From Octopus vulgaris (lineage: Eukaryota), in NCBI GenBank assembly GCA_951406725.2, contig OX597814.1:120280001-120344000 (forward strand): DNA of 64,000 bases. The letters run 5' to 3'. The translations under genes were made by a program, and so were the position numbers. Every line of letters starts with the position of its first letter. Position 1 is the first letter of the stretch. A model generated the notes under the pieces. It saw nothing but the letters and a program-made list of their open reading frames with translations, was not told the DNA's origin and made no database searches. Shown piece by piece: positions 3,654-55,959 of this stretch.

Positions 3654-3724
3654 TGCATCGGCCGGGAATCGAACCCGGGCCGCCCGCGTGGCAGGCGAGC
3701 ATTCTACCACTGAACCACCGATGC
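3654..3724 (-). tRNA. tRNA-Gly-GCC: tRNA-Gly(GCC), 71 nt, intact cloverleaf sequence
   Basis: Minus strand reads GCATCGGTGGTTCAGTGGTAGAATGCTCGCCTGCCACGCGGGCGGCCCGGGTTCGATTCCCGGCCGATGCA: acceptor stem GCATCGG/CCGATGC, GCC anticodon, GGTTCGATTCC T-arm. No encoded CCA and no immediate oligo-T terminator. Confidence 0.96.
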
Positions 3725-7899: not shown

Positions 7900-8870
7900 A
7901 TTTTCATTTTCTCACAGACCTTTCTCTCAACAACACTCCACATGCAATAGTCCAATGGAATGAGATCAGGGGAATTAAGAGGCCAAATGTTAGGGATTAT
8001 GTGATCATGAACATTTTCAGCCATCCATTACTGTGTTACTAGAAAGATGTGTGGTAGTGCAGTTTCTTCTTTAAACACACGTGGCCTTCCATTGCATACA
8101 CTGTCTATCCAGGGCTTAGCAATTATTTCCAGGACATTATTGTAGGCGGCAGAATTCTGAAACCTTGAGGAAAGAAGTAAGGAGGCATCACATGTCCTTC
8201 ATCGTTGACAACCACTAAAACAGTGACAGTTGCCGGAAATTTTGTATGCATATTACTTAAAACATCAGAAGGGTCTGCATATAACCATCTGTTATTTCTT
8301 CTGTTAACATTTTGATCTTGGTCGAAGTTCTTCTCGTTTAAGAATAAACAAATCAAATCTTCTGCTGTGTCTTTCAGTTTGTTTAAGAGTCTTTTAGATC
8401 TGATGTAGTGATTTTCTTTTACTTTTTATGACAAATTGACCTTTCCTCATCTTATAAGACTTATGTCTTTGTGGACAACATTTCTGATTGTTCCTTCTGA
8501 CAGATGGAAATCTTTTGCAACTGACCCCGTGGACTTTGTGGGATTGTTATCGATGGTCTTTTGAACTTGTTGGATAACTTCAGGTATTATGATTTCAGAG
8601 CGTTTACAATACAGTTTATCCTTTGATACTGGTGATACACTTTCATCGTCAGTCTATCTCCTTACAAATTTTGCAGAAGAAAGATCTGGTGACTTTTAAA
8701 AAGTCGAGATATACTCAACCTTCATAACCGCAATAACAGCATATTTCTTCATTTCTTGAGTAAGCTGAGGGTCTGCAATTATTATTTTCTGAAACAAAGA
8801 TTATACTGCGTTAGGAAAAATGCAGGAATGACCGAAAAATGGTATGTCCTCAAATGCCTTAAGCACTCAG
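7900..8870 (-). mobile_element. Tc1/mariner-superfamily transposon relic, one end truncated
   Basis: Fragments WPLNSPDLIPLDYCMWSVVE and NEKNF..NRRNNRW..HTKFPATVTVLVVV..GHVMPPYFF. Terminal tgtcctcaaatgccttaagcactcag+TA matches the TIR of 62627-63772. Confidence 0.88.
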
Positions 8871-21575: not shown

Positions 21576-21929
21576 GTATGTCCGTTAAATTCTATGAAAG
21601 CAAAACTGTGCTGTATAAATCAGACTATGATAAATCATTTAAAAAGTTTGAATAATTTCATCAGATTACCATAAGACGAAATCCAATTTCTAAATACCAA
21701 GTTTTACAATAATCTTTTGCAGCTCAGATTACGTAATAAAGCAACTCCGTCGCATTCTTTATTCTGAATGGATATTCCAACTTAAGCATTTTTTCGGGTC
21801 ATAGTAAGGTTTCTTTTTCTCTTCGTGTGAGACTATATAATGCATTAAAACATACAATCCGCACATGAATCCGTTTATCTCTTCATCTCTCTCTCACTTT
21901 CCGCTCTCTCTCACACACACACACACACA

Positions 21930-22005
<76 letters not shown>

Positions 22006-22200
22006 GTGTGTATATATATATACTAATATATGATGCTGTATTTTTACAAAAAAATTTCATCAAAAAAGTGGCAGCATATTAAAATACCATTAAAGGTTAA
22101 AATTATAAACAACGTATAAACCAGGGCCATAGAAAATTAAAAGTCTGTTATCAACATATTGGCATAGAAATAATTTTCTTTTGCCCTTGTTTATAAGTTG

Positions 22201-22274
<74 letters not shown>

Positions 22275-22280
<6 letters not shown>

Positions 22281-22652
22281 GGCAAAAATACGTCACGTTG
22301 TGTTACCGCTACTGTATATAACTCACATTGATATTTATCATTGTTTGATTTCACTTTTTCAATATCAGCGACAGTGGACGCTGGAAAAAGTATAAGTATT
22401 TGTGAAGGAAATCTAATTCTCGGCGACAACTATGATTGTCACACGCTGACGAGAGGTCAATACCTCGAAACTCGAGTCCGTGTGTATCATAAGTTGAAGA
22501 CGGGAAGGATGACTTCCCTTTGCAAATACTGACAGGACACAGAAAGTGTGTCTATGGCCAGCTGGAGGAGTGTGTCCTCCTGGGGCTAAAAACTACAGTA
22601 GCATCCACCCTTAGGGGTTAGCCATATTGAAATGGCAAAAATACGTCACGTT
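22275..22652 (+). mobile_element. HHR-bearing non-autonomous Penelope-like/retrozyme element (family H1), 353-nt unit with 25-nt terminal redundancy, inserted in (TA)n
   Basis: Perfect direct repeat TGAAATGGCAAAAATACGTCACGTT at 22275-22299 and 22628-22652, TA tracts on both sides, intact HHR inside. Confidence 0.82.
22440..22484 (+). ncRNA. Minimal type I hammerhead ribozyme, intact core
   Basis: CACACG-CTGACGA-GAGGT(caat)ACCTC-GAAA-C(tcga)G-TC-CGTGTG. 6-bp stem I (extendable tatgat/atcata), 5-bp stem II, palindromic stem III ACTCGAGT, GUC cleavage after 22478. Confidence 0.92.
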
Positions 22653-24821
22653 ATATATATATATATATTGTAGGGTGTATACGTATGTGTGTGTGGGGTG
22701 TATGAATATGAGTGTGTATTTACATGGCTGGAGAAGAGTACAGGATGTTCACAACATGAACGTCTTAATCAAGATTAACCATGTTATGATAAACGAGTGC
22801 TGTAGAATATTTTATACACCCACACATTGTTACTCATGAATAAATTGTTTTATGTATTTTATGCATATTACTCTTTCAGTTATTTCTCTACGAACTATGA
22901 TAGAGAATTTTGTCATTCAAATAAAACATACGTAATGACACGAAAAGGAAACTGAATTTTGCAATTTCACATAGAAATATATTTTTGAAAAATACACACT
23001 ATAAATATCGTGATGGGTTAAATATAATTCTAATTAAAAAAGTAATTACATTAAAACTCATCAGTTGAACATCACTAATGTCATTACACAATTATATCAC
23101 AAAAGTTTCATCGAAGATTAATACATGCATGTGTGTATCTAAAAATGAATTTGCTTGGGCGTGTGTTTATATGTGTATGAGTGTTTGCGAGAGAAAATGC
23201 TAAAGATGAACGGGAGAAAATAGATTAGTCTTTTAATGCGAGCAGAGAGCTATAATATATTTGATAGAAAGTACACAAATCTGTAAACCGAGATTCTCGT
23301 GTAAGATATGTTCATGAAATAGAAGAATGGTGCATTAAACAGGTAATTGAATGACTTGCACTTTAGATATTCACTACAAGAAAATTTTAAGCTTGATTTT
23401 TTTCTCTTTCTCACGTGCACAGTGCATCACTTCAATGAAAAATAATTCTCCTGCAATTATGATCCGATATCGTTATAAACAATTCGTAATTAAACGATAT
23501 TTACATTTAGAAAGTATTGTTTTATCGTGGTATGCTTACAAAAAAAAAAAAAAAAACAAACCGCTGCATTCGAATCTCACACTGAATTCACTGACAAGAG
23601 AAATGAATTATCTGAAATGTTTACGATATTAGATTAGAATTAAAATATTTCTTCGTTGATATCCCGTTCGGCAATTGTCTTTCTGGTTAAAAGTTGAAGT
23701 AATGAAAATGAAATTAAACACTATTAATGGAGATAAAATTTACAACTAGTATCATGCAAATGGAGCTTTAAATAATGGAAGTATCGAGATAAAGAGAAGT
23801 ATTTTATGTGCAATACAATATTGCATATTTTCCAAAAAGATGCGTATGCACATACTCATTCCAGATAAGAACACTGACTGTTCATCAGATTGTAGAAATC
23901 TTCACACAAACAGTGTATCTCTGTAATAAACAGTAATTCCTATTATAAATGCATACATATATATATTGATTTGATAATTACGAATCGAATTAGACGTCTA
24001 TTAATAAGAATGTTTGTAATAGACAAATGACGTTTATTACGTCGAAATTTACACTTTTCTAATATATTTCTAGCACTACAAGAACGGGCATGCCGAACAT
24101 ATATTGTCTTAGTACACAAAGAAAGCAGCGAGGTTGAAAAAAAAATGTTAATCATAAGAATATATGCGGAAATTGGCATCGTAAATAAATCGCATATATT
24201 ATAATTACAATCTACATAACACACAATAGAATAGAAATGCTTCTCATGAATTGCCTAGATATTTTCTTTAATGAAGATGGCAGAATATCATTTCAAAGCA
24301 AAAAGTGCCTTATTTCTCGGCGAGAAAAATATTGAAATGAAGAAAATTTTAGATATGAACATTAAGTATACACACACACACACACACGCATGCATGCACG
24401 CACGCACTAACGCACGCACGCACACACGCACACACACAACACAAACAAACGCACGCAAACACACACACACACATGAAAACGAGTAACAAAATTGTGTACG
24501 TCAATTGATTCCGACCGTTTCGAGCAAAACCATTCTCATAAGATTACTGCATAGACCAATCATTAAGGACAAGTTATTAATATGGATATTGATGATATTC
24601 ATATCATCAATAGAGTGCAAATATTTACAATGCTTCCGCTGCTAAATTTTATGGCAGAATGAAAAAAGGACAGCCAGAAATTAGTATATAGCTAACAGAT
24701 ATAACTAAATAATGGAAATTTCGCTGTAGCCATTATATATCTATATATTTACACTGTACTTTAACGGTATAAATGAAATTAGGTTAAAACATACTCTGTC
24801 TGCATAAAACTGTCTGCAAGC

Positions 24822-25278
24822 AATAATAAATCTCTGAACGAGATGTAAACAGTAACTGCTCGACAACTTAAAGTATACTAGCCATCTCAATATGGCTAAC
24901 CACTAAGGGTGGGTGTTACTGTAGCTTCTAGCCCCAGAGTTTTTCGAAATCAGTGACGGAAGTTACTCGAAAACAATAGGTATCTGCAAACAGGTCTCCC
25001 TTTCATCGTAAACAGGTGACTGCCGTACGCCGAAGACAGGCAAATACCTAGAAACTGCAGTCCGTGCGTGTCACCTAGGTTTACGAGAGAGGGATGACCT
25101 CCCTTTGCAAATACCAGAAAGGCACAGAAAGTATATCTAAAGCCAGCTGAAGACGATGATCTTCTGGGGCTAGATGCTACAGTAACACCCACCCTTAGTG
25201 GTTAGCCACATTGAGATGGCTAGTATACTTTACGTTGTTGAGCAGTTACTGTTTACATCTCGTTCAGAGATTTATTAT

Positions 25279-25282
<4 letters not shown>
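24822..25282 (+). mobile_element. Family H1 element with 117-bp inverted terminal repeats, ending at (TA)n
   Basis: 24822-24938 is the near-perfect reverse complement of 25163-25279. The interior is homologous to 22430-22650. Confidence 0.85.
25024..25068 (+). ncRNA. Decayed minimal type I hammerhead (core CCGAAGA)
   Basis: CGTACG-CCGAAGA-CAGGC(aaat)ACCTA-GAAA-C(tgca)G-TC-CGTGCG. Palindromic stem III ACTGCAGT, U4->C core change; extended stem I gtaaacaggtgac/gtcacctaggtttac. Confidence 0.78.
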
Positions 25283-25344
<62 letters not shown>

Positions 25345-27308
25345 TATACATATATATATATACATATTGTGACACAGCTATTAAGGAGAAAAGACGGCAC
25401 GCGGTGTAATACGATGGAAAGTAAATAAATAGAAACAAAGAAAATATAGGCTAAGTAGGGAGGTAATGACTTTGTCTTAAAACTAATATATGAATATATA
25501 TATATATATATATATATACACAAAACTTAGTTGGAGTTATATTAAGATATATAAAAAATATTGTAAAATGTCCCACTGGTTCCGCGAAAATGAAACCGGT
25601 ATGACTATATATATATTTAGCCCGTCTATGATCTTACACGTGACATTAAATGTAGTAATTAAATTTCCCTCAAGTCACATGCAATTAATTTTGTGGTTGA
25701 TTTTAACCATGGTCTTTAAAGTCTAGCGTGAGTAGGGAAATAAACGCTACCATCATATATTATATTTGCAAAGTAGCGTATTCCTTTCCTGATTTAAATG
25801 TTTAGGAACAGGAGAAGGGAATTCTTCATTGTACTTGTAGAGGTTTAGGGATTTTTTGAAACAACAGTAGAGTTTATTGCTATCAGCAAAAAGGATGGTA
25901 ATAGTACTTGCATCTAGATGTGGTGATGCAGCGGGTTATGTATTTATTATCAACCTCCAACGAAAGAACTTTCTCTCTGACGAGACTCCCTCGTAGGAAA
26001 ATGCATTTTTTTAATGTTAATATGACCCTTTGCTGGTGACGCGTCAAAATGAAAGCATATTAAACGATAATATATCAATCAATTGATTGCCTATTTCATT
26101 AAGAATTATACTAATAGTAAAATATTAACTGTACTTGTGATTTATTTACGGAATGATACATAAAAATTTCATCCTACACATCAAGAATCTCGCAAGACAA
26201 TGGTAAGCATTCATACATATATGTATGCTTGTATGCATGAGTATTTGTATGAGCGTATATGTGCATATATTAGTGTACCTGTGTATGTGTTCGCATAGAA
26301 ACTTATACAAGAATAGATATATTTAAAAGTGTCATTTTGATATAGTTGATGGTAGGTAGGAGCATTCTAAAATATTCTTCAATGCTTTATTGTGGTGCAA
26401 GCTTACATTGATTCACAAAGATTGAGAAAGGCGCCATATGAACATCAATTGTGATTATGTTATGAAAGGCATTATACTAAAAGCATAAGAATTGCTTATT
26501 TGCTTCTGTATAGAATGCAACGTCAAGGAGAACATTATGTAGAAATGTAAAAACGAATCCGTAATTTTTGTACAATGGAAATCATCTGCGATTTTTGAAA
26601 CAACGGAAAAACAAAACAAAGCAAAATATGATCTCTAGCTATGCATCTGTTACTCTACATTATTATCAACAAAAATTGTCGTGAGACTTCGAATATTCAA
26701 TGCGAACATTGCTTTATTGAACATGACGTAAATTGACAATATATTCACAATAAATGCATATAATCGCCACATATAATGGACGATGTAAATGTATGGAGAA
26801 ATATTCTGATGGAGACTGAATAAATAATATGTAAGAGAATTTAGTGCTCTTGTTGGAGGATAGTTAGCAGCAATCAAAATATATTATTGACAATAATCGA
26901 GTAAAAACTTTATATGCAAAATATATATTTCATCAATTGTAAAACACCCACAAGCGTTTTGATGGAGCTATTGTATCCGAGATTGGTAAGTGAGAATTCA
27001 AATCTGCATGTGACGCCGAGTTTCTACATGTGACAGAGATAAAATCTTTCAATAAGTAAGAAAAAAGAAAACACAATAATAAAAAAGGCATTGATGCGCT
27101 GAAAGGTATAGAATGTCTTCGTATTGTTGAATGAATTTCCAAGTTAATATAGTTAAATGCATTTTCTGGGGGTGTCGTGTCTTCGGATGTGGAGAAATCA
27201 TTTCAACAAAAATAAATCTTAATGAAACATACTTGTCTCTTAAAAATTAAAGTATCCTTTTATTTAAAAATAATACGTAACTGCTAGATTATTTTACACA
27301 CACGCACA

Positions 27309-27389: not shown

Positions 27390-29114
27390 AATCATAAACT
27401 TACATAAACTTAGATATGTTTCGATAAAAGATTGGTCCAGGCAATGTCTAACTTAATAGCACCACTTGATGTGATTATCTAAATCCTCTCTAAGTCAAGT
27501 TTTGTTTATGGACCATTCAGGTAGTGAGTTTTTGTAGGGTGTGTTGTATCCAATTATGGGTGGCTTATCTGTTATTCCTTGAAGGAATCTATCCAGACTC
27601 CGTTTAAACTTGATGGGATCATTTTTCTCTTCGATCTCTTTCGAGACAATGTTAAATAAGGCAGGACCTGTTGAGGAAAAGAAATTATGTTGCAGTGTAC
27701 ATATATGCTGTGATCCTGAATTGGGCAAGTGACATATAGCCAGTGGTCCCAGTCTTGGATGAACCTTGAAGCTAATGTTCAGATCGTTTGGGCAAAGTTG
27801 GCGGTATATTCTTCACATCGTACAAATTAGGTACCGCTCACGGCGGCGCTGGAGAGAGTAGAGTTTCAAGGCTTTAACGCGATCCCAATAATCGAGAGCA
27901 GCCATGGCTTCAATTCGTTTAGTGTTTGCCATCTGGGGTGGTTCAATCCTCGAAATGTTTTGTCTTGTATGGGGAGACCACAGCGGGCAGCAGTATTCGA
28001 GGTGTGGCCGTACAAAGGAGGAGAAAAGTGGTATGATGATACCTTGTTCTCTGGACCGGAAAGTTCTTAAGATCCAGGAACTCATCCTACGAGCTATATC
28101 GACCTTATTGTTGATGTGGGCACTCCAACTGAGATTGTCATCAACAATTACGCCCAGGTCTCTGATATTGTTAGAGGCGGTGAGCTTTTTCCCTGAAGGA
28201 AAAGGGTATGGCTGTTTTAATGTGAACTTTCTTCCAAAATGCATCAGCTCAAATTTTCCCTCTTTCAGTTGCATTTTGTTCCTGTCTGCCCATTGAATCA
28301 CAGCATATATATCAGACTGGAGTTGAGTTCGGTCTGCTTCTTCATTGATGATTTGCTGGAGCTTAGTGTCATCAGCAAATATTTTCAATTTGCAGTAATG
28401 TACGACACTGGAAAGGTCATTTATATAAATTATAAAAAGGAGCGGGCACGAAACAGTCCCCTGGGGGACACCGCTGGTGACTTTTGCTAGACTTGAGTGG
28501 ACTCCATCGACTGCAACATGTTGTGTTCTATTCACCAGGAAATACTTAATCCAGTGTAGAAGTTTTCCACGGATTCCAACATATGCCAATTTTGAGAGTA
28601 GGATATTATGGTCAACCCTGTCGAACGCTTTACTGAAGTCAAGATAGATGACACCAGATTTCGAACCTGTTCCCAAGGCTTTAAGTATATCTTCAATGTG
28701 GTGTAAGAGTTGTGTTAGACAGCTTCTTCCACAGCGAAAGCCATGCTGATTTGCATTTAGAAGTTTGTGGGTCTCCATGAAGTCAGCTATCCTTGATCTT
28801 GACACTTTTTCAAACACTTTAATGATGTGGGAGGTGAGTGAGATTGGGCGATAGTTGACTGCGAGGGATCTGTTTCTCTGTTTGAAAACTGGGATGACAG
28901 ACTGGGAGAGGAGCTGTTGCGGTATATAACCTGAGTCTAACAAATTTCTCCAGAGGTTGGTCAGAGGGACTTCAAGTTGGTGTCTACATTCCTTCAGAAG
29001 ACTAGCGGGGAATATATAAGGGTCTACAGCAGAATAGTATTTGATCTCATTTATTGCTGCTATGATGTCTGAAGCAGTGAAGGTTATGTCTGAGATTTTA
29101 TGTTGGACAATCCC
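27390..29114 (-). mobile_element. 5'-truncated CR1-group LINE: reverse transcriptase ORF2 fragment plus 3' end
   Basis: 437-aa ORF 27813-29126 with NYRPISLTS, QHGFR, YLDFSKAFDRVDH, SGVPQG, IFADD, IRDLGV, RPHLEYC, SLQRRRER. Continues after a frameshift (NFFSSTGPALFN..FKRSLDRFL). Short tandem tail (aagtttatg) near 27390-27410. Confidence 0.93.
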
Positions 29115-29221
29115 AGCAAAAGTCACCAGCGGTGTCCCCCAGGGGACTGTCTTGGGCCCGCTCCTCTTTATAATTTATATAAACTACCTTTCTAGTGTCG
29201 TACATTACTGCAAAGTGAAAA

Positions 29222-29999: not shown

Positions 30000-30540
30000 T
30001 CTAAACATATTCCAAACCATTTTAAGTTATGACAACACCATGAGTTAGCCAACATGCTACATTAGAAAGTGGGAACTAGTGACATGCGAGATGTAGTATA
30101 AGCCCAAACCGCAGAGATTTCCCGATCCAAACAGATCAGACACTCGAGCATAACAAGCCCGAAATTATTGTGACGGACAAGGTCAACCACATGTGCCATA
30201 TGACTGATGTTGCGTGCCTCCTTTCATCCACGAATAAGTGAAAAACTAAATATTTACAATCCTCTTAAGTACGAATTTGCCCACTAACAAAAATGAAGAT
30301 AGTGAAGAGACTGCCAGTTATTATTATGACCTTGGAGACAGTATTAGAAAGTATGAAGAGGAATATAAAATAAATCAGAATGGATTGCCTAGTAGATATA
30401 TTATAAGAGGTAACAACTCATCACTTCATCTAGATAGCTGAAAAGAGCAGGTAGCACGGGGCCTTAGGCTGCAGGTAGCAAACCTGCTTCCTTTACAATA
30501 CTTCAGGAATTCTAACAAAATCTAAGTCAAAGGAGTAAAA
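30000..30540 (+). mobile_element. 3' end of an R4/Dong-like RLE LINE (restriction-like endonuclease remnant), followed by (TAA/CAA)n
   Basis: Translation DFPIQTDQTLEHNKPEIIVTDKVNHMCHMTDVAC resembles the R4-clade PD-(D/E)xK endonuclease motif. Confidence 0.75.
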
Positions 30541-30789
30541 TTAATAATAATAATAATGATAATAATAATAACAAAACAACAACAATAACAACAACAACAA
30601 CAACAATAATAATGATAATAACAACAACAGCAACAATAACAACAACAACAACAGCAACAATAATAATAATAATGATAATAATAATAATAATAATAACAAA
30701 AACAACAATAATAACAACAACAACAACGACAATAATAATAATAATAACAACAACAACAACAGCAACAACAACAACAACAATAACAATAC

Positions 30790-30834
<45 letters not shown>

Positions 30835-30852
30835 TAATAATAATAATAATAA
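30541..30852. repeat. Compound (AAT/AAC)n microsatellite
   Basis: Direct reading. Confidence 0.95.
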
Positions 30853-32080
30853 AGCAGAGTATCAAGGTAGAGGATGTAAGATCTGCTCTCAGGAAGTCAA
30901 GCAAATGGAAGTCTCCAGGAAAGGACAACATTCCTAAGTTCTGGTTGAATGCCTTCCCAGAGAGCCATGAATTGCTAACAAAAATTTACAACAATGTTTT
31001 GCAACAATCTAGTGTGATTCCCTCTTGGTATAACATTCCTACTTCCAAAAACAATGAAGAAACAAATGAACCAAAACATAATTGACCCATATAAAACGCT
31101 AACATCTTTTTTGACTGAATATACCTATAGTCAATTAATAGAAAATGATATATTCCCTAATGAGCCAAAAGGATGTAAACGTGGGTCCTATGGTTGTAAA
31201 TTTCAGTTACACATCAATAAGATGATCTTCGAAAATAGTCACAAATAACACAAAAACTTGTCGATAACACGGATAGATTAAAAAAAGGTTTTGATAGTCT
31301 ACCACATAGCTGGATTAAGAAATGTCTGGAAATGTATAAAATAGCACCTACTCAGGGAAACTTTTTGTTGGTAAGATCAAGGAGTACCATACTGACTATG
31401 AACAGTAACAATGAATATATTAATGCTGGAGATGTAAGAATTTCGTGTGGCATTTTCCAGGGTGACTTTCTATAACGAATCCTCCTTTGCCTACCCTTAA
31501 TACATCTCTCGAAATTGCTCAATGATGTAATTACGGTTATACAATATTTGATGAAAATATAAATCCTCTCATTTACATGGATGATTTAAAGAACTTTGCA
31601 AAAAATGACCAACAACAACAAGGCTTACTAGCGATTGTTAAACAATTCAGTGATGACATCAGAATGCAATTTGACCTCGATAAATGTGCAAAGCTACCTT
31701 TATCAAAGGAAAAACTCACAAACATCTAACGTTAACCTTGACTAGCAGACTGTCACGAAGGAGCTAGAACCAGCGGAGAGCTAAAATACCTAGGGGTATT
31801 TGAAGGGGACGGAATCAAACATTCAGTGATGAGGGAAAGGAACGGAAGAGAATGTTATCGCAGGGTAAGAACAATACTCAAGACAGAGCTGAATGCAAGA
31901 AACAGGGTTGAAGTTATCAATACTTTAACCATACCAGTCGTGACTTACAGTTTCAATATCATTAAGTGGTCAATTATTGAAATATGTAATCTTGAGAGAA
32001 AAATACGAATATTGTTGTCAATGCATAGAATGCCCCACCCTACCAAGAAAATAGAGAGGTCGTGGACTTTTATCACTGGA
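30853..32080 (+). mobile_element. Decayed R4/Dong-like LINE RT fragment
   Basis: WKSPGKDNIPKFWL, KGCKRGSYGCKFQLHINKMI, GFDSLPHSW, CGIFQGD, LIYMDDLK, KYLGV, RRVRTILKTELNARNRVEVINTLTIPVVTYSF. Many frameshifts. Confidence 0.88.
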
Positions 32081-32465
32081 ATTAATTTGACAAATTAAAT
32101 TTAGAAAATTCAATTCTATATTTAAACGGTGAGGAATTATGTACGTTATTTACATTGTTTACATTATTTACATTCCACTAGATGAGGACAAACACCCATC
32201 GAATGTAAATAATGTAAATAAAGTAAATAAGGTTAAATTTAGATGTTGAAGTGAATCTAACAGTTTTTGTGGGTTTTTAAATGGCTTATAATCACTTTCC
32301 ACGCTGCAATATTATTATTATTATTATTATTATTAATAATAATAAGAAGAACTGCTTAATTATTATTATTATTATTATTAATAATAATAACAAGAACTGC
32401 TTAATTAATAATATTGTATTTAGATGTAGCCTTATGACTAATCAACGAACAATCGTTCACAATAG

Positions 32466-33946: not shown

Positions 33947-34041
33947 AATATTAGGGAATAAATCCAAATTTACAGGGAAAAATCAAATTTAGGATTGAAT
34001 CCAATTTTATAGTAAAATATAATATAATATTAATTAGAGAC

Positions 34042-34309
34042 AAAACCACTATTATGCAAATCAAACAAAGAAAGACTTAATCCAATACATAAAAAATTTT
34101 ATATAAATTAAATATATAAATATATTTAGGAGAGTGTGTGGACGTGTCTGTGTGTATCTACATGTGTATGTACATGTGAAGGTATGTTTATATACTGATA
34201 TGTGTCTATTCAAGTTGTATACATGACTGTTACTTTGTTGAAGGTTGTATACACACCCATATATATAAAATTCTTTGTTTGATTTGCATAATAGTGGTTT
34301 TGTCTCTAA

Positions 34310-34341
<32 letters not shown>

Positions 34342-34703
34342 CAGTAAGGTTATGTGTGAATATATGTATCTAAGACGTTGTATCCATTCACCGTTAGACA
34401 GTGGTGAGAGGGACAAACGCGCGCACACACAGACATATATATATATATATGTGTGTGTGTGTCTATTTTACCTATATACATGTATATGGGTGTGTATACA
34501 ACCTTCAACAAAGTAACAGTCATGTATTCAACTTGAATAGACACATATCAGTATATAAACATACCTTCACATGTACATACACATGTAGATACACACAGAC
34601 ACGTCCACACACTCTCCTAAATATATTTATATATTAATTTATATAAAAATTTTTATGTATTGGATTAAGTCTTTCTTTGTTTGATTTGCATAATAGTGGT
34701 TTT
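34042..34703. repeat. Near-perfect 220-bp inverted duplication (34042-34263 vs 34483-34703)
   Basis: About 1 mismatch and 1 indel by eye. A third partial copy of the end segment lies at 34271-34320. Confidence 0.92.
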
Positions 34704-37569: not shown

Positions 37570-38500
37570 ACTTTCCTTATCGCATAACTTGTTATCAGCT
37601 GGGTATGCTATAACTATGATCCTGCATAGTTTGTTTTCTTTCTAAATTAAGACTAGATGTACCTTCCTGTTCTCTATCTCATGGTCACATTAAATCATAA
37701 AATCTCACAGGATCTTTGCATTATCATTTTCGATAATGCTTTCGGGTTTATGTTCGTACCAATTTTTACTGTTTCAAGTCCAATGGACAAGCCTTGCTAT
37801 ATTTTCGTAGCGTCCCTTATATTCCTTCTGGGCTAGTGGCGTCCATTGAGTGGTAATATGACATACGATTTCACCACTAGTCCACCAATCCTGCACTTAT
37901 TACTTTGTGATGTGTTGTTTATTCTGTATTTTATGTGATTTGTTTTTAGTGCTTGCTTTTGGGCAGCACAGATTACAGCTTCTCTTCCCCGGTTTAAATC
38001 ACTTTTAGTCATCCACAGTCATTTTTTTCTCTGTCAGCCTTATCTTTAACATCCCTATAAAATTGTTCATGCATTCTTTTCTTTTACACACCTATTTTCA
38101 GTTTCATTCCTTCTCAATTGCTTGCAGAGTGCGTTATCTTTGCAATCTTTCATCCTACAAAAGCCTGACCTTCTTAATACTAATAATAGCGGTTCTGTAG
38201 CATTTTTACATGCTATGTTATGCTGCTTTCCTGTGCTCTAATGCGGTATTTCATCCAATAAGTTCTCTTTCTTCTCCTTTTCTTGGTACATACAGTCCGT
38301 CTGTGTCACCTTTTGGGTGGAGTGTCCCGTATCTAGTTAGCAACTTCCTTGTCTTTCTGTCTAAGTTGTTTAGGTCGTCTACTCTCCATGCGATTACCCC
38401 TGCTCCATACCTAAGGAGTGAAACCGCCCTGGTGTTGATAGCTTCAGTCTTATTCTGATCGTTTAATTTCGACTTAAGGATCAGGCTTGCATGGGATTTC
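37570..38500 (-). mobile_element. Decayed R4/Dong-like LINE (RT thumb, CCHC knuckle, start of RLE region)
   Basis: ILKSKLNDQNKTEAINTRAVSLLRYGAGVIAW..LDRKTRKLL..LHPK..LYVPRK; KCRI..EIVCHIT..LAQKEYKGRY. Trinucleotide repeats on both sides. Confidence 0.85.
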
Positions 38501-38509
38501 CGTTTGCCT

Positions 38510-38538
38510 ATCAATATTATTATCATTTTCATTATCCC

Positions 38539-38586
<48 letters not shown>

Positions 38587-38731
38587 TATCATTATTATTA
38601 TCATTATTACTATTATTATTATTGTTAGTGTTGTTGTTGTTGTTGTTGTTGTTGATTTTATTGTTGTTAGCAACAGCAGGATCAGCAACAACAGCAACAT
38701 TAGTAGTAGTGGCAGCAGCAGCAGCAGCATC

Positions 38732-38796
<65 letters not shown>

Positions 38797-38825
38797 AAGT
38801 AGTCAATGAAATTATTATAATATTA
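38510..38825. repeat. Compound (ATC/ATT/GTT/GCA/TAG)n microsatellite
   Basis: Direct reading. Confidence 0.95.
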
Positions 38826-39329
38826 TTATACTTATTCATTCTTCCGATAATCGTCACACCTTCGTTTTTTAGAATACATTTCCTTATTGCGTCCTCTCTT
38901 CTGCTTTTCTAACTTTTAGAGAATCAAATAATAGACTCTCTCTCAGAAAAAAACGGCATTTAATGCTGGTTTTCATCGCATCTATGAAAGCATGAAAATG
39001 GGGTTTATTTCGTTTACGATTTGCAAATCACGGATACCTATCTCCATGCTTCATATTTACTGCATGGAAAGCAAAATTTAAAGAAGGTTTCTGTTTTCAT
39101 ATATTTGTTTTATCCCTTTCAATAGTTAACGTGATCAATGAGCGCTTTGATTCCTATTATCTATAAAGTTTCTTTTGATTCATCGATTTTCCTGAATATT
39201 ATAAAAATCTTCCTTGATATGTAGCAATTCCAGTCTTTGTTGAAAAATGATACTATTCCAAATCGTTGCATATTCAGATTGATAGGCATATTCCTTAAAA
39301 ACACACTCATGTATGAGTATCTAGATATA

Positions 39330-44880: not shown

Positions 44881-45900
44881 AATGCGATGTAGCATATATT
44901 TCCTTGTCCCTCTTTTTGTGCATAACCTCCAAATCAAATCATTTTATGTAGGCACATTGTGTCGACCATGAAATTTTTACAAATATTTAGTTGATAAAAT
45001 TTAATGATTTAAACACAAAAATTAATTAATATAACATGATAGCAAATATAGCTGATAACAAAGTTATATTTACAAAATACGTTATGTTACTATACATTTT
45101 TTATTGTAAAGCATATCTATAACTACAGTAAAATTTATCCTTTTTTCTTCTTCCTCCTCCTTTTCTACTTAGGTTAAAGTGTCCTACAGCGAAATTTTAG
45201 TACTATCGGCTAGTATTGAATTTTTTTTTCACTTTCATGAAGCGTCAAATGAAAGTTTATCAAAAAGAAGTTTATCAAGTTATGAAGTCTTCCAACCCCA
45301 CTCCCCCGTTTGAATATCGAGTGGTGCAGGTGAAAGGAGGGGGAAAAGGTAACTCATGTGAGCACCTGAACTCACTGCACAATAATGTAAATATGTTGCA
45401 AAGAATGAAAGCTTGGGAAATTCGTCCTAACAATGCTTTATTCTGTAGTGATGAGATTTTATCATGACAGGATGACTGATTTACTTTCGGTTTAACTGTT
45501 TTGAAATAAGCCCGTGTTTTTGCAAGCTAGTTTTCGATTATATATCTTCTTTAGAAGTACGAGGTAGCAGGGTTTCCCCCTTTATATTTCTACTTACTTT
45601 TTTTTTTAAAGTAATGTAGTTATATTTGTGGTTTTACTAATAGATATTAAATGTAAGATTGGAAGCGAAATATGATGTTCCCAGGTTTATATCAAGACAC
45701 AGTTTTAGGATTTCCACAGATTTTACTTTTCTGTTTATAAGTTATAATCAGTATTCTTCTCCTCAAGAATTTATAAGCTGCAAACATTAGAATTGTTAAC
45801 GGCGAATGAAAGGATTTTTAGTGGCAAACTGATGAGTTGTTTTCAATTTCATATTTTTATTTATCATTCAATTTATTTTCTTGCTTCCCACTACATTATA

Positions 45901-47850
45901 ATGAGCAAAAAAAATGTTGCACCAGCCAAAAATCCGAAAGACTGGCTTAAGATGCCAGCGTTTACTAAGTGGTTGTGTGAAGTACCTAGTGACCAACCTA
46001 GAGCATATTACAGATATTGTAGATGTAATATGTTGGCAAAATACTATCTTTTAGTAAGTCACTGTGAAGCAAAGAAACATAAGGCATCAACACCACAACA
46101 AAGGATTCCTCTTACCAATTTTATGAAAATCAAAAATCATAAGACGTCTATGCTTGAAGCAAATACAGCAACGTTTATTTGTTGCCACGTATCATTTAAT
46201 AGCTGCGATCACTTAATACAGTTATGTAAGAATTATATGTCTGATAGTGATATTATGTTCAAAGTGAAGTTGCATCGTACTAAATATGCAAATATTGTGA
46301 GAAATATTGTAGCTCCATATTTTGAAGGAGATTTGATTTCTGATATAGGAGATAGAAAATTTAGCCTGTTATTAGATGAATCCAATGATATATTTATAAG
46401 CAGGTTGTTAGGAATTTTTCTCATATATTACAGTGACACTCACAAAAAAGCGGTACATACATATCTCAGTATGGTATCTTTAGAAACATGTGATGCAGTT
46501 GTCATTGTAGATGCCTTAAAAATTGAATTAGCGAAAAAGAAATTAGATATAAAAAATTTACTGACTATAAAAACCGACAATGCTAGAGTAATAATAGGAG
46601 ACAACAATGGTGTTTTCTAGAAATTAAAATACGTTACATCAGTATTCCAATTTAGATGTGTATGTCATTCTTTACAATTGGCAGTATCCAACACTTGTGC
46701 TGAATGCCTGCCAATAAAATTAGAATTTTTAGTATCCGAAACCTATAAATGGTTCTCTTATTCTTCAACAAGAAGAAATGCCTGCAAACAACTTTACTTT
46801 GCTATGATAAAGAACCTTTGAAGATTGTGAATTCTTGTACAACTAGGTGGCTGTCAACAGAACCAGCTGTAAATAGAATTTTAAGCCAATGGTTTGAATT
46901 GCTAGCTCACTTCCAAACTACAACTACAAAAGAAAAATGCTTTACAGCACAAGCATTACATGAAATGTTTTGTGATTCTAGGAATGAAATTTATATTTTA
47001 TTTTTGCATCCAATTTTAAAGCATGTTCAGGAATTGAATAAACTGTCGACAAATCAAAATTAATTGAAGATATTTCAAATCTGTTGCAGATATGATAGTG
47101 TTGCCAACATGTAGAATGGATCCTCTTCATCCCGATGCTTCTATTGAAAAGGTATTTGATCCTAAACCAAATTTAGGCTACAGGTTCGAGAGGAAGAGTA
47201 GAAATGATTATCAACAAGACTGTAACAGCCACCGAAGAAAATAATATTCGCAAAAGAGCACAACAATTTTTACTCTGCCTTTATAAAGAGCTCAAGCACC
47301 GTTTGCAAGAAAATATTAATATACTGAGGAATGTCTCATGTTTTTCAGTAGAGAAGATTTTGCAACATTCCAAAGAGCCAAGTTTACCTGCCTTAGAAGC
47401 AATGTATTGAAATGAAGAAAAAATTACTTCAATTGAAATATAGTTTAATAGCATTCATTTAGTTAAATGGACAAATACGTCTAATGCTGACATATTCTGG
47501 CTGGAGGTCTCAGAATATAAAGATGCTACTGGAGGAAATCTTTTTAGAGATGTTGCAGATTTTGCTATTAATCTATTGACATTGCCAAACTGAAATACAG
47601 AAGTGGAACGGTCGTTCAGTTGTATGGGAGTAATCAAACCAACATTGGAAGCCAAAATGCCTATTCCTATGCTTAGATCAATATTCTCTATAAGATATAG
47701 CCTGTAAAACTATTGCAAATGTTGCAACAAATTCGATATTCCAAAACACATATTTAACAAGATATGGACCTTGAATGTATACAGAATTCAAGACATAGGT
47801 ATTGCAGCTGAAAGTGATCAAATCAGTGAAATTCAAGAAATTATTTCTCG
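45901..47850 (+). pseudogene. Decayed hAT-superfamily transposase (ZNF862-like type)
   Basis: N-terminal Zn-finger remnant YCRC..LVSHCEAKKH, FSLLLDESND, TDNA, CVCHSLQLA (CxxH), TRWLS, and C-terminal dimerisation motif LP.*NTEVERSFSCM. Stops and frameshifts. Possible TIR remnants cagggtttcc (45568) and gttggcaaaattg (47985-47997). Confidence 0.9.
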
Positions 47851-55266: not shown

Positions 55267-55589
55267 GTAAGTAAACTTGTCTGTAGTATACCGGATATGA
55301 AGTATCTCAGGACCAAACAACAATAGCAACAACGATGCCTGATATCAATTTAAAACCAAATGCCTTGAAATTGAACTTCTTTAGTTTCTAGTATATTGAA
55401 AATATGATTTTGATGACAGATTAGGCCAATGTTAGAAATACTTGGGTAATATTTCAGACTTATGAAATATTCTTTCGTTGCATAGTAATACAGAAGAGTA
55501 GAACTACCTTTCAGGTTCTGCCGACATTCATATTGTGACGGAATTATCTAATTTTCCATCATTCTAAACTGATATCGTAGTAAAAATTA

Positions 55590-55800
55590 TTTGCCAACAT
55601 TACATGGCAGTCCTGGTTTAGGACAATGGTTACTGTAATTTAACCCCAGGACACATCATCTCCAGCTGGCTATACTACACGATCTGTGTCCTTATATTTT
55701 CGAACAAAGGAATCTTGCACCCCAACTCAGCTCAAAACAATATCTGTGTATCGCGATTTCCGGGTTATTTCCCTTCATCAGCACAGAATAATAGTTCGGC
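55590..55800 (-). mobile_element. Divergent family H1 copy
   Basis: Minus strand ggacacaga..tagccagctggag..cctggggttaaattacagtaa matches the block downstream of the HHR in the 22275 and 24822 copies. Confidence 0.72.
55743..55787 (-). ncRNA. Minimal type I hammerhead ribozyme, intact core
   Basis: Minus strand: TCTGTG-CTGATGA-AGGG(aaataa)CCCG-GAAA-T(cgcg)A-TA-CACAGA. Palindromic stem III ATCGCGAT, AUA triplet, A.G at the base of stem II. Confidence 0.85.
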
Positions 55801-55959
55801 CGATATGGTTTTGATTTTTTTTCTTCATTTGAAAGCATGTCCGTTTACATTGTTTCAACAGAACAAAGACACACATTTGTCATAAAAGATAGTAATAAAA
55901 TGTTAAAAGGAACATTTAATTTTATAAATCTGTAAAAAACTGAAGTAAACAAGTAGTGA

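Follow-up and report, generated by a model that had tools for sequence, protein, structure and literature searches.

The described systems closest to the locus examined here are the retrozymes of animals and plants and the Penelope-like elements (PLEs). Metazoan non-LTR retrozymes are defined as tandem repeats that give circular RNA. Their units are non-coding, 150–450 nt long, present in many copies, low in GC and self-paired in their folds, and they carry a type I hammerhead with a 6-bp helix I, a 4-bp helix II and a short palindromic helix III (PMC7229834; bioRxiv 10.64898/2026.07.22.740005). LTR, PBS and PPT are not seen in them, dispersed monomers are described, and PLEs are proposed as the mobiliser. 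In mussels, retrozymes of 350–390 nt occur as abundant circles, and a model with a circular template and a PLE helper was proposed (Cervera and de la Pena 2020, PMC7229834). Copying of more than one unit from circles was already suggested in Cervera and de la Pena 2014 (PMC4209133), where dimeric hammerhead cleavage is also described. Li, Clavereau and Pollet 2026 (10.64898/2026.07.22.740005) recorded dispersed monomers and argued that retrozymes derive from PLE pseudo-LTRs. The link between animal retrozymes and PLEs is already in print, and elements of this kind are known. Plant LTR retrozymes (PMC7229834; Li 2026 preprint) are non-autonomous, hammerhead-bearing and terminally repeated; they have type III hammerheads in long LTRs, a PBS, a PPT and 4-bp TSDs.

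PLEs leave partial tandems, an inverted 5′ copy and a tail of 30–40 bp, use TA-rich targets and are joined at the 5′ side through microhomology (Craig 2021 PMC8557442; Arkhipova 2013 PMC3846280). A PLE enzyme cuts AT-rich DNA on both strands (Frangieh 2024 PMC11167929). According to the same study, reverse transcription begins at two internal sites of the RNA, which delimit the tail, unprocessed RNA serves as the main substrate, and the one PLE tested in vitro did not require hammerhead cleavage. A paper on octopus repeats (PMC13282606) reports recently active PLE families, with no mention of ribozymes in its accessible portion. Our literature search returned no title on a retrozyme or hammerhead family in octopus or cephalopods; the supplements of PMC7229834 and Li 2026 may list it.

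The window, that is, the whole stretch of 64,000 nt of Octopus vulgaris DNA that was analysed, holds three related sequences. The one at 22275–22652 is young and belongs to an abundant 353-nt repeat, non-coding and with a hammerhead; with a probability of roughly 0.85, this repeat falls in the class of non-autonomous retrozymes mobilised by PLEs. Its parts, those of a sister copy and the position of a third, distant relative are as follows.

22197–22274, no strand: (TA)n target, left flank; its last ATAT equals the letters preceding the repeat inside the unit
22275–22299, plus strand: segment A, first copy, the 25-nt terminal redundancy, read as a 5′-truncated pseudo-LTR stub
22300–22342, plus strand: segment B, about 43 nt, an optional 3′ extension (tail); loose ends at 22650
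22343–22430, plus strand: segment C, non-coding body; holds 22395–22411, the 5′ arm of a long stem enclosing the ribozyme
22431–22491, plus strand: type I hammerhead with its outer stem (motif scan, Rfam, folding)
22492–22627, plus strand: segment E, structured 3′ region common to the sister and the third relative (motif 22557–22600)
22628–22652, plus strand: segment A, second copy; ends at the usual 3′ terminus of the family, 22649–22652
22653–22668, no strand: (TA)8, right flank; a TSD is undefinable within the microsatellite
24806–24938, minus strand: sister, 5′ arm in inverted orientation, made of the end of E, then A, tail B and some 16 nt beyond (120 nt at 96%)
24939–25282, plus strand: sister, forward part in the order C-hammerhead-E-A-B, then (TA)n (alignment to the rotated unit)
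55560–55955, minus strand: third, distant relative, hammerhead and E-type 3′ region (boundaries approximate)

The insertion at 22275–22652 comprises 378 bases, and the first-pass annotation was right that it starts and ends with the same 25 nt: 22275–22299 and 22628–22652 are identical at 25 of 25 positions, with a period of 353, and no extension is possible on either side. Only four perfect direct repeats of at least 25 nt outside low-complexity sequence occur in the whole 64 kb, a window in which the repeat search was dominated by microsatellites. The segments are arranged as A-B-C-ribozyme-E-A, and both flanks are TA runs. The ATAT shared by the left flank and the unit marks a possible microhomology join at the 5′ end. 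Tail B is missing at the 3′ end of this copy, and it is present at both ends of the sister. None of the six frames is open across the 353-nt unit on either strand. The same annotation had regarded the direct repeat as internal to the element. This holds, since the sister has it internally and other copies in all four sequencing runs compared below continue past it; reading the repeat as a TSD is thereby ruled out. A hairpin at 22621–22636 spans the permutation point and is predicted in all three relatives; the 5′ end of the 22275–22652 copy falls in its loop, beside the target-matching ATAT.

The type I hammerhead lies at 22440–22484, with a predicted cut after 22478. It consists of helix I (22440–22445/22479–22484), helix II (22453–22456/22463–22466) and a palindromic helix III (22470–22477), and an outer stem is formed by 22431–22436/22486–22491. 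All core letters are present (22446–22452 and 22467–22470), and this is the sole match of the strict hammerhead motif scan in the window. The earlier description of a perfect hammerhead stands for the complete core and the cut site, and it needs a qualification for helix III, which is 2 bp inside an 8-nt palindrome. The Rfam model Hammerhead_1 (RF00163) matched over 45 of its 45 positions with 32.2 bits (E=2.1e-5). Because this is below the gathering score of 34, the hammerhead is absent from the gathering-level Rfam scan of the window, which returned a tRNA only (3654–3724, minus strand, 66.7 bits; anticodon GCC, Gly, by reading). Rfam reports neither the hammerhead of the sister nor that of the third relative. 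A relaxed scan requiring a palindromic helix III found exactly the three window relatives. Helix III is an 8-nt palindrome in all three, each time with a different sequence, which fits dimeric cleavage of the kind described in PMC4209133.

Variation within the family also bears on the ribozyme. In 40 of the 44 variant rows, the conserved core is hit only at 22450, a free position, and at 22478, by a change that is still cleavable; the helix II variants on paired positions carry pair-restoring letters (A22454G with T22465C, and G22453T with C22466A, which are not linked per contig). Contigs of two runs, X1 and X4, show at 22498 a further subfamily, with G at 22475 and a different stretch after the ribozyme; its helix III is still self-complementary through wobble pairs.

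The sister copy was examined for its relation to this unit. When the unit is rotated, it aligns along the full forward part of the sister, with 245 identities in 338 columns (about 72% alike). This copy, about 28% diverged, agrees with the unit in length, and its segment C is homologous (score 33, 0 of 1000 shuffles). It had been claimed that the first ~70 nt of the 22275–22652 copy are homologous to the last ~70 nt of the sister and that the two copies are permuted. This was upheld by an ungapped comparison of the first 68 nt (A and B) with the last 68 nt of the sister, which gave 46 matches and a score of 48; the highest score among 1000 shuffles was 28. Segment B alone scored 26, a value reached by 3 of 1000 shuffles, and window-wide BLAST scored A and B against the sister end at just E=0.86. 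Judged from these alignments, the permutation between the two copies is real, although the match is weak and the B part is weak when considered by itself. The ribozyme core of the sister is damaged by one core change, and one base pair of helix II is broken.

Two features are seen in the inverted arm of the sister, which, like the third relative, the first-pass annotation had left out. One is that, read outward, the arm extends 16 nt beyond B, into the first part of C, with 10 of 16 positions in register; the P value for this extension is about 0.006, both by the binomial and by a window-wide count, for a single match found post hoc. Another is that, within 24806–24943, the arm stops 5 nt into the start of the forward part, so that the two together tile about 1.35 units. 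The arrangement resembles an inversion made by twin priming, a comparison drawn from L1, with a template about 1.35 units long. A literature search for twin priming in Penelope gave unrelated titles only. A short 8-mer is duplicated at the outer junction of the arm. A MITE reading of the sister was ruled out, because its arm repeats the 3′ end of the unit itself in inverted orientation and includes the tail, as PLE copies do.

The occurrence of the family was then surveyed in public sequencing runs. At least half of the words of the stretch are present in 20 of the 24 listed runs, which come from 11 studies, with at least 8 organism labels among the holders; none of these is recorded as RNA, which weighs neither for nor against. 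Four runs were compared over 22275–22860 at 85% likeness: X1 and X4, guessed to be DNA (X1 possibly the source sample), and X9 and X18, guessed to be RNA. All are contigs, from which the starts, ends, strand, level and circularity of RNA are unreadable, and a tabulation of recurrent molecule ends gave no entry. Contigs matching the family numbered 4583 in X1 and 3456 in X4. The summed depth was 2.6–4.6e5 over 22295–22454 and reached 2.3e6 over segment E, as compared with 55.5 (X1) and 46.8 (X4) over the unique flank. The family is thus highly repeated; the depth is not a copy number, yet it points to thousands of copies. In both of these runs, the summed depth of E is about 3–6 times that of the 5′ half. 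Over B, C and the ribozyme, it is roughly level (2.6–4.1e5 in X1), and the join of B to C is therefore family-wide rather than a one-off deletion. Pattern scans of metagenome contigs (two scans) and viral contigs (two scans) gave no matches.

The ends of the copies were read from the contigs, of which 32 pieces among about 8400 were inspected, together with the best 24 of 435 loose-end rows. Among these rows, long unrelated AT-rich flanks attach at 22649 in 21 contigs of X1, 34 of X4 and 1 of X18, and X9 shows one attachment at 22640. The first-pass annotation had envisaged start points scattered around the circle. Such a pattern was not found: the 3′ ends in these best 24 of 435 rows cluster at 22649–22652, with some lying 36–43 nt further on, and 5′ start points are readable for two or three copies only. 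Copies that continue from A into B are represented by 22, 22, 4 and 1 contigs in the four runs, and one contig of X1 leaves B at 22335 into TA. Joints to the opposite strand were found twice in X1 and once in X4, two of them possibly at one locus. One contig of X4 enters the unit from a TA run near the same point as the 22275–22652 copy, where the unit has ATAT. In X18, a single contig of 383 nt, which is 353 nt with an overlap of 30 nt (depth 139; 3 letters differ), covers the whole unit and connects 22627 to 22275 again, so that the family consensus closes into a 353-nt cycle in one contig of a guessed-RNA run. This back-joint is listed in that run only, and the contigs of the other three runs are short. 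No tandem array was found in 21800–25500, and the public contigs are too short to show one; the closed consensus and the even depth over the join between units would fit arrays without demonstrating them.

The unit is predicted to be strongly folded. As a circle, it reaches −117.5 kcal/mol, as compared with −82.9 ± 4.6 for 100 dinucleotide shuffles, none of which was as low (z = −7.5); the minus strand gives −102.4 kcal/mol. Constraining the circle to form the hammerhead costs 6.8 kcal/mol above the minimum in the folding computation, and the 76-nt ribozyme region alone has a z of −3.05. Between the 22275–22652 copy and the sister, 7 of 38 chosen pairs are changed on both sides; paired cells amount to 97% between these two closer copies, against 21–45% when the partners are slid, and RNAalifold counts 17 of 69 for the same two-copy pairing. 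This conservation of pairing, being derived from two sequences and a structure built on them, is supportive only.

The third relative carries its hammerhead at 55781–55749, with an imperfect base of helix II. Its 5′ part is unrelated and starts at a (TA)n run; it may be the stump of a longer PLE. A segment-E pattern has exactly three matches in the window, where 0 are expected, the pattern having been built from these three. Several other features occur in the window. The region 34022–34703 contains nested inverted repeats (175 nt at 95%, 70 nt at 99% and 51 nt at 100%) and a 31-nt direct repeat with a period of 402, with TA runs inside; it looks like another PLE-type insertion with inverted and partial-tandem parts, and a hammerhead search there gave no match. 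At 8392–8420 and 8776–8800, there are perfect matches of 29 and 25 nt with periods of 54908 and 54902, so that these sites and their partners about 54.9 kb downstream are probably two copies of another dispersed repeat. An open frame of 453 aa at 27813–29174 (minus strand) matches RVT_1 (E=1.8e-29) and is LINE-like by eye. LINE-like fragments near 30516–32098 and 38251–38908 and a DNA-transposon-like frame at 45748–46620 were labelled by eye, without a Pfam family match for the label.

As compared with metazoan non-LTR retrozymes, the 353-nt unit has the same non-coding, multicopy, low-GC and self-paired character within 150–450 nt, the same type I hammerhead, here with an intact core, and the same helix sizes; LTR, PBS and PPT are likewise not seen, and dispersed copies and a proposed PLE mobiliser are common to both. 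The earlier statement that its size falls in the range of animal non-LTR retrozymes agrees with the length of 353 nt, the hammerhead and the lack of an ORF. Two differences should be mentioned. One is that those retrozymes are tandem repeats by definition, whereas the copies found here are dispersed and comprise 1.07 and about 1.35 units. The other is that insertion into TA runs with a PLE-type tail and an inversion is a feature of the 353-nt family. With plant LTR retrozymes, the unit shares its non-autonomy, a hammerhead and terminal repeats, but a plant-type LTR retrozyme was ruled out, as the 25-nt repeat is without a ribozyme and the single type I hammerhead lies outside it.

The likeness to endonuclease-bearing PLEs concerns the manner of insertion: a partial tandem that gives the direct terminal repeat, an inverted 5′-truncated arm in the sister, fixed 3′ ends, an optional tail of about 30–45 nt, AT/TA-rich targets and a hammerhead in the terminal region. 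TA runs adjoin all three window copies on at least one side, in a window where such runs are common. In contrast to these PLEs, the 353-nt unit has no RT/GIY-YIG ORF, which rules out its being an autonomous PLE, and its helix sizes are canonical, whereas metazoan PLEs typically have a minimal hammerhead. A search for a partner PLE among 11 of the 28 long ORFs of the window by Pfam scan found one RVT_1 and no GIY-YIG; the other 17, outside the scan, are mostly translations of simple repeats.

None of the copies seen has an end at 22478; the template therefore exceeded one unit in length and extended across the cut site. In addition to the class assignment, we lean towards an uncleaved multimer RNA as this template. 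Tandem or partial-tandem master copies would be transcribed on the plus strand, and a PLE RT/GIY-YIG protein acting in trans would nick (TA)n DNA. Priming would take place within the RNA, either where A ends (22652) or where tail B ends, these being the two preferred sites. For the 22275–22652 copy, priming at the end of A would have been followed by 378 nt of reverse transcription that passed directly over the hammerhead cut site; short microhomology would then have joined the cDNA to the TA run, leaving the 25-nt stub. The sister would have been primed on both strands of the target, with one start at the end of B and the other, on the opposite strand, about one unit upstream of it. This would have given the forward part of about one unit and the inverted arm. 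The hammerheads, probably as dimers, may also cut the multimers into 353-nt monomers; these may circularise, as in mussel and axolotl, and need not be the template.

The nearest alternative keeps the same family and the PLE helper and takes as the template a ligated 353-nt circular RNA, primed at a fixed site and copied once round plus 25 nt. We regard it as possible yet less likely. The first-pass annotation had proposed reverse transcription over just more than one turn of such a circle or copying from a tandem array. The template exceeding one unit and the 353-nt consensus cycle are retained from that proposal, and the circle has become the less likely of its two branches. From contigs, the two templates are indistinguishable. 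A circle would agree with the ends of the copies, which do not lie at the cut site and therefore exclude a cleaved linear monomer as the template, with the strong circular fold (z = −7.5), with the circles abundant in mussels and with the X18 contig that closes the unit, in a run with zero depth over the unique flank. Nevertheless, an assembly-graph cycle also arises from tandem transcripts or from mixed permuted copies. X18 is labelled RNA by guess, and carried-over DNA of a high-copy repeat might give the same contig, a possibility for which the zero flank depth in X9 and X18 is an inadequate control; the depth profile of these runs has the same shape as that of the guessed-DNA runs, and the back-joint occurs in one contig of one of the four runs. 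Furthermore, a single 120-nt stretch of one circle would have to serve as the template for both arms of the sister. In this one case, the geometry seems easy on a multimer or on two RNA molecules and awkward on one monomer circle, and for this reason, we consider the multimer somewhat more likely. The dispensability of cleavage in the PLE tested in vitro (PMC11167929) also counts against a circular template. On the other hand, the conserved catalytic positions suggest that cutting is under selection, which would fit a circle-based cycle at least as well, and the pair-restoring helix II variants also count for a circle. Given the conserved core, cleavage matters at some point of the cycle, so that circles may well be formed even without serving as the template.

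Two further explanations dispense with the small mobile family or with RNA altogether. The copy might be a rare internal-deletion by-product or a stump of a long autonomous PLE, without any self-propagating small family. The 3- to 6-fold depth of E over the 5′ half in X1 and X4 and the third relative, which shares the hammerhead and E and not C, speak in its favor, and longer relatives therefore probably exist. This origin is nevertheless improbable for the copy itself: in both guessed-DNA runs, the depth at the B-to-C join matches that over the remainder of the 5′ half, the closed contig includes this join, and the diverged sister keeps both the unit length and segment C. More improbable still is an origin at the DNA level, be it through local duplication, through a large TSD or an artefact of the assembly, or because an excised satellite circle was inserted. 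In its favor, both flanks consist of microsatellites, in which assemblies are prone to slip, and none of the contigs listed spans the whole locus. However, the repeat is element sequence and not flank, the 3′ end is the common terminus of the family, a contig of X1 (possibly the source sample) joins 22639–22860 without a difference, and the RNA pairing is conserved on one strand.

What is new in the preferred reading, that of a PLE-mobilised retrozyme family, is the combination of retrozyme-sized units and a canonical hammerhead with the full insertion signature of PLEs, that is, fixed ends, a tail and an inversion. The 353-nt family thus ties retrozymes to PLEs through the anatomy of its insertions instead of through joint occurrence. 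Its youth (3 letters differ in a contig from another labelled organism) and its great abundance make it a handy subject for the question of circle versus uncleaved-multimer templates. If the less likely circle were the true template, thousands of TA-targeted, terminally redundant copies would record a PLE RT running round a ribozyme-made circle, and the family would offer a way to settle the still unproven claim that retrozyme circles serve as templates for retrotransposition.
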